47,659 nt of DNA, from IMG/VR virus record IMGVR_UViG_3300026258_000006, positions 1 to 47,659 of that record; one strand, given 5' to 3'. Below, piece after piece: positions 5,268-47,406 of this stretch; position 1 is the stretch's first letter, and each line of letters opens with the position of its first letter. Below the pieces are notes generated by a model. The model was not told where the DNA came from. It saw nothing but the letters and a program-made list of their open reading frames with translations, and did no database searches. The position numbers and the translations under genes are program-made. Source of the stretch: a virus (taxonomy: Duplodnaviria; Caudoviricetes).

Positions 5268-7694
5268 ATGGCACAACAATTAGGGCAAATTCCCACAGAA
5301 TTTCCGAGCCAAGCGGTTTCAGATGCTGTTAAAAGGACATATAAATATGGTCTTTCAGTAGCTAGAGCTATTGAACAAGAATGGTTCAATAAAGATAATA
5401 GTATAGGGAGATTTTGGCAGACAAGAGAAGAGTATCATAAACTTAGATTATATGCTAGAGGAGAACAATCTATTAGAAAATATAAGGATGAGTTTGCTAT
5501 TAATGGCGATTTATCTTATTTAAATTTAGATTGGAAACCAGTTCCAATAATACCTAAATTTGTAGATATTATAGTTAATGGGATGCAAGATAGGTTATTT
5601 AGCATTAAAGCTTTTGCTCAAGACCCAATAGCTACAGGAAAAAGAACAAAGTTTGTAGAAAATATACAAAGGGATTTACACGCTAAAGAACTTCTAGCTC
5701 AAATAGAAACCGAGCTTGGGGTAAATGCTAGAAATGTTCCCGAAGATAAATTGCCTGCAAATACTGAAGAATTAGAACTGTTTATGCAATTAAACTATAA
5801 ACAGGGAATTGAAATTGCTGAAGAACAAGCTATTAATAATGTATTACTGACTAATAAATATGAAGAGCTTAAAAGTAGAGTTGATTATGATTTAACAGTT
5901 TTAGGTATAGGGGCTGTTAAAAATACTTTTAACAATACTGATGGTATAAAATTAGATTATGTAGATCCAGCTAATTTAATATGGTCTTATACAGATGATC
6001 CAAACTTTCAAGATTGTTATTATTTTGGTGAGGTAAAGCGTATTCAATTAAATGAACTTAAAAAGCAATTTCCTAATTTAGATGATGAAGAAATAAAAGA
6101 ATTAACTAAAAAAGGATCTAATTGGACTGATTATAATACTGTTGGTACATTTAACAATAGAAGCCGACTAGATAACAATAATACTATTACAGTATTATAT
6201 TTTAATTGGAAAACATGGGAACATAATGTTTATAAAATAAAAGAAACTTCTACAGGGGCTTCTAAAGCAATTGAAAAAGATGATTCTTTTAATCCTCCTA
6301 AAGATAAAAGAACCCGATTTGAAAGAGTAGCTCAATCAAGGGAAGTGTTATATGAAGGTGCATTTGTATTAGGTACTAATACGTTACTTAAGTGGAAAAA
6401 AGCTGAAAATATGGTACGCCCAAATTCTAATACTAATAAAGTATATATGAATTATGTGGTAAGTGCTCCTAGAATGTATAAAGGAAATATAACATCTTTA
6501 GTATCTAAGATTACTCCTTATGCGGATTTAATACAACTAACTCATTTAAAATTACAACAAGCTATTCAAAGAATGACGCCTTCAGGTGTTTATTTAGATG
6601 CGGATGGATTAGCTGAAATAGATTTAGGAAATGGAACAAGTTATAATCCGCAAGAAGCCCTTAATATGTATTTTCAAACTGGTTCTATTATAGGTAGATC
6701 ATTAACAGTTGAAGGCGAACAAAACCCAGGAAAAGTTCCTATCCAAGAATTACCCGGCGGAGGCGGTGGGCAAATACAAGTTTTAATTGGAGCTTATAAT
6801 CAATATATCCAAATGATGAGGGATGTTACTGGATTAAACGAAGCTCGAGATGGCTCAGATCCAGACCCTAAGGCTTTAGTAGGGGTTCAAAAGTTAGCTG
6901 CCGCAAATAGCAATGTTGCAACAAGACATATTTTACAAGCAAGTATGTGTATTACTGCTACTTTAGCAGAATGTATTGCTTTAAGATTTAAAGATGTTCT
7001 TAATTTTCATCCAACAAAAGAAGCTTTTATAGGGGCTTTAGGTATGTTTTCTGTGGGATCTTTAGAAGAATTAAAAAATTTAAATTTACATGATTTTGGG
7101 ATATTTCTAGAGCTAGAGCCTGATGAAGAAGAAAAAACAATGCTCGAAAGCAACATCCAAACTGCTTTAAGCGCCGGTAGTATTTATTTGGAAGATGCAA
7201 TTGATATTAGAGAAATAAATAATATTAAACTAGCTAATCAGTTGTTAAAATTTAGAAGAATTAAAAAACAACAAGCTGATCAAGCTCAAGCAGAAGCCGC
7301 GAGTGCAGCGCAAGCTGAAGCACAAGGGCAAGCACAAATACAAATAGAAGAAGCTAAAGCTCAGGCTGAACAAGTTAAAACAGAATCTAAAATTCAATAC
7401 AGACAAGCGGATATTGAATTTGAAATTAAGAAAATGGAAGTTGAAGCTCGTACTAAACGAGAATTAATGCAATATGAATTTGAGTTAAATAAGCAATTAA
7501 AAGAAATGGAATTACAAGCTCAAAAAGAATTAGCAACTCAACAAAATGAAGCAAATATTGAAGTAGCAGAAGTTAAAAAAACCGCTAAAAACGTAGCTGG
7601 GCCGCCTTCAAGTGGCAAACCTATGAAGTCGTTTGAATCTAAAGGTAATGATGTCTTAGGTGGTATTGATTTATCAAGATTTGAACCAAAATAA
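5268..7694 (+). CDS. portal protein
   Basis: 808 aa directly after TerL; LDWKPVPIIPKFVDIIVNG and RDVTGLNEARDG motifs; long coiled-coil C-terminus. Confidence 0.88.
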   Translation: MAQQLGQIPTEFPSQAVSDAVKRTYKYGLSVARAIEQEWFNKDNSIGRFWQTREEYHKLRLYARGEQSIRKYKDEFAINGDLSYLNLDWKPVPIIPKFVDIIVNGMQDRLFSIKAFAQDPIATGKRTKFVENIQRDLHAKELLAQIETELGVNARNVPEDKLPANTEELELFMQLNYKQGIEIAEEQAINNVLLTNKYEELKSRVDYDLTVLGIGAVKNTFNNTDGIKLDYVDPANLIWSYTDDPNFQDCYYFGEVKRIQLNELKKQFPNLDDEEIKELTKKGSNWTDYNTVGTFNNRSRLDNNNTITVLYFNWKTWEHNVYKIKETSTGASKAIEKDDSFNPPKDKRTRFERVAQSREVLYEGAFVLGTNTLLKWKKAENMVRPNSNTNKVYMNYVVSAPRMYKGNITSLVSKITPYADLIQLTHLKLQQAIQRMTPSGVYLDADGLAEIDLGNGTSYNPQEALNMYFQTGSIIGRSLTVEGEQNPGKVPIQELPGGGGGQIQVLIGAYNQYIQMMRDVTGLNEARDGSDPDPKALVGVQKLAAANSNVATRHILQASMCITATLAECIALRFKDVLNFHPTKEAFIGALGMFSVGSLEELKNLNLHDFGIFLELEPDEEEKTMLESNIQTALSAGSIYLEDAIDIREINNIKLANQLLKFRRIKKQQADQAQAEAASAAQAEAQGQAQIQIEEAKAQAEQVKTESKIQYRQADIEFEIKKMEVEARTKRELMQYEFELNKQLKEMELQAQKELATQQNEANIEVAEVKKTAKNVAGPPSSGKPMKSFESKGNDVLGGIDLSRFEPK

Positions 7695-44928: not shown

Positions 44929-44964
44929 TTTCTAATTCTCTAAATAATTCTTCTATTTCTTTTG

Positions 44965-45004
44965 TTATATTATCACTTTGTTCATCCATTTGTAACGTAT
45001 TTTT
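44965..45004 (-). promoter_or_regulatory. putative phage promoter, copy 1
   Basis: Minus strand AAAAATACGTTACAAA-N12-GTGATAATATAA, with identical boxes and spacing to 47367..47406. Confidence 0.7.
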
Positions 45005-45382: not shown

Positions 45383-45398
45383 ATTTTGATTTATTTAG

Positions 45399-45471
45399 TT
45401 GCGAGGGGAGGATTCGAACCTCCGACCTCAGGGTTATGAGCCCTGCGAGCTGGCCACTGCTCTACCTCGCT
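45399..45471 (-). tRNA. tRNA-Met(CAT), initiator (fMet) type
   Basis: AGCGAGG TA GAGC AGTGGCCA GCTC G CAGGG CTCATAA CCCTG AGGTC GGAGG TTCGAAT CCTCC CCTCGCA A; 1:72 mismatch, A11:U24 and three G:C pairs in the anticodon stem; no encoded CCA. Confidence 0.93.
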
Positions 45472-45677: not shown

Positions 45678-45682
45678 TTTAG

Positions 45683-45760
45683 TGGACGTGGGAGGAGTCG
45701 AACCTCCGTTTGCTGATAGTGTACTTTCGAACTTTGTCAGCACTAACCAATTTCACGCCC
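45683..45760 (-). ncRNA. tRNA-like RNA resembling an isolated tmRNA tRNA-like domain (Ala identity)
   Basis: GGGCGTG/CACGTCC acceptor stem with G3:U70 and A73, stemless D-loop AAATTGGTTAG, helix TGCTGA/TCAGCA, AAC linker, T-arm GGAGG-TTCGACT-CCTCC. Confidence 0.75.
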
Positions 45761-45914
45761 TATTATATCTTATCCAATAATCTCTTTCAAATGCTTCAAT
45801 TTGAGCACTAGAAACTTTCATTATTTTAAATTTAGCTCTTTTTCTTGCTAAACCGTATAAGTCTTTTTTATTTACTATTTTATGTTCGTTTTCTATTATT
45901 TTATTTATATTCAT
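45753..45914 (-). CDS. 53-aa hypothetical protein whose stop overlaps the tRNA-like RNA
   Basis: Hand translation MNINKIIENEHK...DYWIRYNRA; the TGA stop lies in GGGCGTGA. Confidence 0.45.
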   Translation of the reverse strand: MNINKIIENEHKIVNKKDLYGLARKRAKFKIMKVSSAQIEAFERDYWIRYNRA

Positions 45915-46996: not shown

Positions 46997-47266
46997 TTAT
47001 TTTAAATATTCTCTTGTATTTTTACTTTCATTTATAGTATATTCATGGAATAATTCTTCCATAATAGTCTTTTTTAAATAATTTGAAGCATCATTAAATA
47101 ATTCATTAAAAATTACTTTTTTACCACTAGCGGTTTTACTCATTCTATATAATTCTTGTACTAATTCAGATTCATCTAAATTCCATTCAACAATTCTGTC
47201 TATTTCTTTGACTAATTCCTTTTTGGTTTTGTCAACTAATAGTCTTAATTCTTTACTTTTACTCAT
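46997..47266 (-). CDS. hypothetical early protein
   Basis: Start reassigned to MSKSKEL (A-rich leader); the listed start at 47314 lies inside the minihelix RNA. Confidence 0.6.
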   Translation of the reverse strand: MSKSKELRLLVDKTKKELVKEIDRIVEWNLDESELVQELYRMSKTASGKKVIFNELFNDASNYLKKTIMEELFHEYTINESKNTREYLK

Positions 47267-47280
47267 TTTATTTATTTTAG

Positions 47281-47321
47281 TTGAGTAGGTGAGAATCGAA
47301 CTCACATTAACCATTTACTCA
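47281..47321 (-). ncRNA. tRNA minihelix (acceptor stem plus T-arm, no D or anticodon arm)
   Basis: TGAGTAA ATGGTTAAT GTGAG TTCGATT CTCAC CTACTCA A, followed by CTA. Confidence 0.7.
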
Positions 47322-47366
47322 TTTGTCTGTTCGTTTAAGGAAAAAACACACTTCAACACCTATTTA

Positions 47367-47406
47367 TTATATTATCACAAATTTATTTTATTTGTAACGT
47401 ATTTTT
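47367..47406 (-). promoter_or_regulatory. putative phage promoter, copy 2
   Basis: AAAAATACGTTACAAA-N12-GTGATAATATAA; lies about 45 nt upstream of the minihelix. Confidence 0.7.

Follow-up and report, generated by a model that had tools for sequence, protein, structure and literature searches.

We identified a 44-nt mimic of the top half of a tRNA on the minus strand (47278..47321) of a virus record, and matched base changes across many phages confirmed, at the level of sequence comparison, that it is a real structure. The window, by which we mean the whole stretch of DNA that was analyzed, is 47.7 kb long with a GC content of 32%. The reading that we prefer, to which we assign a probability of roughly 0.55, is that the element would act in cis as a cutting signal for the host RNases P and Z, in the manner of the t-elements of plant mitochondria.

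Genomic setting of the element

The window carries genes for a terminase, a portal, GroES, a primase/helicase, an RNR, a sigma-like protein and a ligase. Its terminase shows 63% identity to Manatee Spring podovirus and 46% to Elemovirus phages, and 86 of the 87 records that it matched bear names of Flavobacterium, Cellulophaga, Tenacibaculum or Maribacter. A passage of PMC8776804 places the portal and cpn10 in the Pervagoviridae core. From these comparisons we infer a Flavobacteria-type podophage with a Flavobacteriia host and a Pervagoviridae-like position. The element is surrounded by small minus-strand ORFs, and gene content points to an early region. Comparison with Pfam and PHROG gave no named family for the neighboring ORFs; the 89-aa ORF directly downstream (46997..47266, minus strand) matched no Pfam family and one faint PHROG of unknown function.

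On the same strand, a repeat (D4) and a consensus scan marked two promoter-like copies: copy 2 at 47363..47406, with GTTACA-16-GATAAT and an extended TG, and copy 1 at 44961..45004, 80% identical to it. The -10-like hexamer of copy 2 ends at 47371 and a start site is predicted near 47364. Across the window, the sigma-70 consensus scan gave 16 matches versus 20.4 in shuffles, that is, no excess. A related promoter-like motif (ATACG ... GATAATAT) recurs along the early strand in related phages; in the loci compared, it always lay on the strand of the element, with 0 occurrences on the opposite one. A tRNA-Met(CAT) detected by ARAGORN and Rfam (45396..45471, minus strand) and an 81-nt RNA described below both end in ACTA, as does the element, so the ACTA tail appears to be a general habit of this phage.

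Sequence and anatomy

Read from 47321 to 47278 on the minus strand, the element consists of TGAGTA, the linker AATGGTTAAT, GTGAG, TTCGATT, CTCAC, a single C, TACTCA, A and CTA. These blocks form six Watson-Crick acceptor pairs, an A7/C66 mismatch and a 5-bp T-stem with a TTCGATT loop (T-arm at 47289..47305), followed by the discriminator A at 47281 and CTA; the discriminator precedes the ATG of the 89-aa ORF, at 47266, by 14 nt. The minus-strand sequence agrees on all these points with the initial annotation, which had also foreseen that standard tRNA finders would probably miss the element: ARAGORN does not detect it, and Rfam at E<=10 gave no match at 47278-47321. The D-stem and the anticodon arm of a canonical tRNA are absent, and the helix stack measures 11 bp, one bp shorter than in tRNA.

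A strict Watson-Crick version of the element occurred in 3 of 1000 shuffled windows, and a loose version (G-U allowed, 6 of 7 pairs) in about 13% of 300 shuffles; the fold of the isolated element reached only z=-1.6 versus shuffles. Since the loose pattern is common in shuffles and the folding signal is weak, the case for the element rests on its homologues. Model R1, whose training set includes the window copy, gave 47278..47321 as its sole full-length significant match within the window.

A covarying family in phages

The pattern search of phage genomes that had been proposed as a check uncovered a wide family. A first IMG/VR scan, in which only the unpaired bases were fixed, returned 121 scorable matches at 120 loci. 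Both stems were perfect (T-stem 5/5, acceptor 6/6) in 108 of the 121 and, among the distinct cores, in 48 of 58, with differing sequences. When only 14 loop bases were fixed (second scan; pattern estimated in about 730 stored stretches), 60 of 127 matches were perfect and 64 reached at least 5/6. Among 94 distinct cores, a set pre-filtered for pairing, two-sided changes affect 10 of the 11 pairs (462 double-changed cells versus 141 in shuffles): the two acceptor strands covary at each of the six pairs, the closing G-C of the T-stem is present in 94/94 and its other four pairs covary. In 113 cores selected on Watson-Crick pairs alone, G-U cells outnumbered A-C cells 36 to 5, an excess that points to an RNA of the element's strand. 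Covariation, these strand-specific G-U pairs and the position at gene junctions (see below) support the idea, already voiced in the initial annotation, of a tRNA top half that could serve as a processing substrate.

The acceptor had been read as 6 of 7 pairs. The six pairs are upheld by covariation, and the seventh appears to lie outside the structure, with base 66 missing in 38 of the 94 distinct copies and a U facing A7 in only 7 of the other 56. We also considered a 7-bp acceptor shifted by one base, which proved not to be general, as N-1 pairs with N73 in 16/38 and 15/64. The first acceptor pair is variable (U-A 32, G-C 28, A-U 26) and G3-U70 occurs in 3 of 102 family cores, the window copy having A3-U70. 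Because acceptor identity varies freely and G3-U70 is rare, no single synthetase identity seems to be kept, and charging of the element by one synthetase is unlikely.

The 10-nt linker (47306..47315, minus strand) had been described simply as a linker. When it was left free, with T-arm and tail kept constant, the search returned 79 distinct sequences, 18 of them with no assignable 5' strand; the short-linker copies carried GG in 41/41 and were exactly 10 nt long in 32/41. By this comparison the linker is a stem-less D-loop mimic with a conserved GG, matching the D-loop pattern of tRNAs. By analogy with tRNA structure, the GG is predicted to form an elbow by pairing with the T-loop. We rejected the idea that the ATG of the linker is used for coding: it is missing in 10 of 113 cores, and 80 stop within 30 codons. 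Among 54 distinct tails gathered without selection, none was NCCA (0/54) and C74 was kept in 45. As a separate observation, the linker of L413, L427, L450, L486 and L102 carries an inserted short hairpin or D-stem-like pairing, as intermediates.

Regarding distribution, a narrower pattern occurred in only 14 places in 185,579 species genomes, 11 of which pair 6/6 by eye. A blastn search with the element found no full-length match among cultured phages; one partial match led to the cultured Flavobacterium phage FL-1 (host Flavobacterium sp. B183), which holds one copy at 7247-7290. The Crassvirales record cr53_1 has one copy before its primase gene; about 250 nt of non-coding DNA upstream of this minihelix (L635 2341-2649) may hold another structured RNA. 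Absence from relatives, together with a lack of processing, had been named beforehand as evidence against the element. We observed such an absence in Elemovirus elemoA, in MW202828 and in the four nearest relatives retrieved with the sigma-like protein, of which two are at least 90% complete, so early gene expression in this phage group does not require the element. Among the contigs of one sample, related ones have the element in common as far as its first base, and one variant is a base shorter at the stem junction.

Gene junctions and multi-copy arrays

Among 74 family contexts, which come from related phages and are not independent, the element lay inside a long ORF in only 3; an ORF started within 60 nt downstream in 48, and a stop codon was present within 100 nt upstream in 37. 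In one phage, record G005 (L183, 11772-16627), 8 copies stand at successive gene junctions within 6 kb, each beginning, by eye, within about 20 nt of the upstream stop codon. The same 7-bp inverted repeat directly follows six of these copies, ahead of the next gene, and other short hairpins follow two (by eye). Record G006 (L275, 19241-20090) contains 6 minihelices with A/C-rich low-complexity spacers of roughly 100-150 nt between them and a terminator-like hairpin after; in appearance, it looks like a processed small-RNA array.

Upstream pseudoknots and the window leader

An H-type pseudoknot ended within 8 nt upstream of the element in 60 of 135 contexts, compared to 7 of 135 downstream and 84 of 675 shuffles, although the contexts are related and some of these calls arise by chance. 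The folding energy of the 50 nt upstream was poorly separated from that downstream (z<-2 in 22 versus 15 of 135), and we therefore do not claim that plain hairpins are enriched. One class, type A, is an H-type pseudoknot whose stems covary and whose third loop is long and A-rich; it occurs in tandem in L168 and L198. In an HMM test whose loci were centered on the element and overlapped the training set, 21 of 27 type-A matches abutted a T-arm element and 26 of 27 lay within 120 nt of one. Type A had no Rfam match in the loci searched; L186, L155, L037, L044, L171 and others carry it directly upstream of the element. A second class, type B, with a covarying second stem, was seen upstream of the element in L017, L083, L087, L115 and L148, in a layout that we take to recall type III antitoxin pseudoknots.

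In the window, the leader of about 43 nt (47322..47366, minus strand) is, from its local alignment to the L186 leader, an eroded homologue of type A: the alignment score of 34 was reached by 1 of 1500 random window segments. This leader fails the pseudoknot descriptor, its stem 1 being down to 3 bp, and the HMM finds no match in it. In many relatives, a conserved 75-aa ORF (L158 4103-4330, minus strand, and homologues) precedes the pseudoknot-minihelix unit; that of L158 has no Pfam or PHROG family. A partner protein of the unit is a possible role for it.

A tmRNA-like sister RNA and the origin of the family

The window also encodes an 81-nt RNA (45680..45760, minus strand) that matches the Rfam tmRNA model with E 2.4e-10, below the gathering score. 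It comprises G3-U70, a D-loop, one arm, an AAC connector, a T-arm and ACTA, without an mRNA-like domain, and fits both ends of the tmRNA model, 326 model positions being replaced by 33 nt. Its IMG/VR family contains 87 distinct sequences, with G3 in 85, the AAC connector in 74 and very varied inserts on the single arm. It is likely, by analogy, an SmpB-binding RNA of the DS6A kind. An 11-of-12 match to the sigma-70 consensus (45762-45790, minus strand) ends 2 nt before this RNA, too close to be its promoter.

The acceptor 3' strand of the 81-nt RNA is common to three minihelices, and the middles in this shared-acceptor series measure 10, 34, 37-154 and 212 nt. From the sequences, at least some minihelices are likely to descend from tmRNA-like RNAs reduced to the tRNA-like domain (TLD), and the window copy may be one of them; in distant phages, minihelices may have been derived independently from tRNAs. 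In addition, a 37-nt cargo, identical at 33 of 37 positions, occupies two kinds of site: in L217 it precedes the minihelix, and in L598 it lies within the TLD arm. L551 and L592 score similarly for the cargo motif.

A candidate cis cutting signal and its alternatives

According to the proposed mechanism, RNase P would cut at or next to the first base of the element and so give the upstream RNA a defined 3' end, this RNA being the leader of about 43 nt in the window and an intact pseudoknot in many relatives. On the 3' side, RNase Z, or an endonuclease followed by trimming, would set free the mRNA, which would then begin with a short A-rich leader. Together, the cuts would liberate a 44-nt piece to which CCA might be added, as it must be to the ACTA-ended tRNA-Met of this phage. 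A cut defining the mRNA 5' end had been envisaged initially; the family context suggests that setting the 3' end of the upstream RNA is a further, or even the main, effect of the cut. Bacterial RNase P cleaves acceptor/T-arm hairpins and stacks on the elbow (PMC11143913, in part), and plant mitochondria have t-elements, for which a role in guiding cuts by RNase P and RNase Z has been proposed or shown (PMC1920247, in part). A cis signal is supported by stem sequences that are free while geometry is fixed, by the invariant GG, by junction placement, by the two arrays, by the abutting pseudoknots and by the shared 37-nt cargo. Against it count the lack of NCCA in the 54 tails, the preference reported for T4 precursors in the part of PMC11143913 that treats them (a CCA end is cut better than UAA), the 11-bp stack, the absence from close relatives and the failure of the window leader in the pseudoknot test.

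Two functions had been offered at the outset, a cutting signal and a released decoy, and the former is now the better supported. As a trans decoy, the released 44-nt RNA would mimic an uncharged tRNA elbow and tie up either a tRNA-binding factor of the host or a defence enzyme that targets tRNAs, processing being merely the way in which it is made. This reading, which we hold to be possible but rather doubtful, draws on the early-region location, on the patchy occurrence among relatives and on the retention of C74. Both loops are strongly conserved, beyond the needs of model RNase P substrates, a degree of conservation that would suit a trans ligand as well, and the element co-occurs with the TLD-only RNA, a form proposed to titrate SmpB in the relevant passage of PMC4131195. 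A decoy would need neither placement at successive junctions or between spacers nor coupling to an abutting upstream structure, and the element has no anticodon arm and lacks the P2 arm that SmpB occupies. Relative to the decoy, the cis signal gains from the multi-copy arrays at gene junctions and from the pseudoknots that abut the element.

Decay from a tmRNA-like or tRNA gene, leaving a relic that is still folded and of little current use in the window phage, is improbable. The length series joining TLD-only RNAs to same-acceptor minihelices (10, 34 and 37-154 nt), the eroded window leader and the absence from close relatives agree with decay, while the window copy is intact, most distinct cores pair perfectly with different sequences and most short linkers keep the same length. 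A translational switch, in which TACTCA would pair with the 5' strand or with the start region ATGAGTA and hide the start codon unless the tRNA-like fold forms, is very unlikely: the complementarity exists in the window, and folding the plus strand of 47230-47345 yields this pairing too, but by eye no matching complementarity is present at the downstream starts of other members. That the element is an att-site remnant of a host tRNA or tmRNA 3' end, or a chance hairpin, can be practically dismissed, since the resemblance of the T-arm to tRNA 3' halves and the frequency of the loose pattern in shuffles are outweighed by the covariation of the two acceptor strands, which also answers the earlier concern about an att remnant, by the rarity of the strict pattern and, for an att site, by the lack of an integrase family among the matches listed for 53 ORFs of this partial contig.

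We tentatively suggest a broader scheme, which we would not yet favor, in which the tRNA top halves of marine Flavobacteria phages serve as natural carriers, loaded with small structured effector RNAs. Such a cargo would sit directly upstream of the minihelix, in a MALAT1/mascRNA-like arrangement, or in the arm of a tmRNA devoid of the mRNA-like domain, and the host RNase P would release and stabilize it early, neutralizing host defences or factors.

Comparison with known systems

Like the t-elements described in the consulted text of Forner et al. 2007 (PMC1920247), the element is a non-canonical tRNA-like fold with a T-arm at RNA boundaries, here those of coding or structured RNA. The t-element of cox1 folds 74 nt, whereas the element has 44 nt, is phage-borne, has a fixed D-loop motif and covaries family-wide. 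MALAT1/mascRNA offers a second likeness, as a stabilizing structure abuts a tRNA-like RNase P site, so that cutting would leave a protected 3' end (PMC8457004, in part). In the family, a predicted pseudoknot ends just 5' of the element in the 60 of 135 contexts given above, the window pseudoknot being eroded; MALAT1 has an ENE triple helix and the family an H-type pseudoknot, in phages of bacteria. We consider that the element probably works like a t-element and resembles the MALAT1/mascRNA layout, and we file it as neither.

The TLD-only tmRNA of mycobacteriophage DS6A (PMC4131195 and PMC11915505, in part) is a phage tRNA-like domain without an anticodon, and the 81-nt RNA of the window fits this kind; the two sources, in the parts concerned, disagree as to which molecule was tested, the DS6A RNA itself or one similar to it. 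The element family shares its stem-less D-loop with GG (41/41). In contrast, the element is about half as long and lacks G3-U70 and the P2 arm between the D-loop and the connector, with no Rfam tmRNA match at 47278-47321; having neither G3-U70 nor P2, it was not filed as a TLD-only tmRNA. Stacked acceptor and T-arm are enough for cleavage of synthetic RNase P substrates (PMC11143913, in part), from which the element differs in being natural, in keeping the D-loop GG and in ending in ACTA rather than ACCA. The same source mentions the P1/P7 C4 RNA precursor as a phage non-tRNA substrate of RNase P.

In the openly accessible literature searched, we found no description of minimal tRNA mimics punctuating phage transcripts. 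A section of PMC10690425 refers to five tRNA-overlapping candidates; the element family may be among its unnamed ones, and a search by motif and contig identifier in its supplementary files from file 3 onwards found nothing. If the cis reading is true, the use of minimal tRNA mimics as transcript punctuation, described for organelles and for MALAT1, would extend to phages, and the element would be a natural counterpart of synthetic minihelix substrates of RNase P. The minihelix would also be a marker for unannotated phage small RNAs, since the adjoining sequence is often a conserved pseudoknot. The family is testable in the cultured phage FL-1.

Finally, a search of 20 loci with Rfam at the gathering score matched neither the element nor the motifs upstream of it, and in 18 loci at E<=10 there were only weak sub-threshold overlaps. 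For mascRNA-menRNA, there was no match in the window and one family member at E 9.9. One family member, L095, matched the tmRNA model at E 0.005 (15.7 bits). In L242 (219-256, minus strand), the Rfam DUF805b motif was detected above the gathering score, 45 nt downstream of the minihelix.
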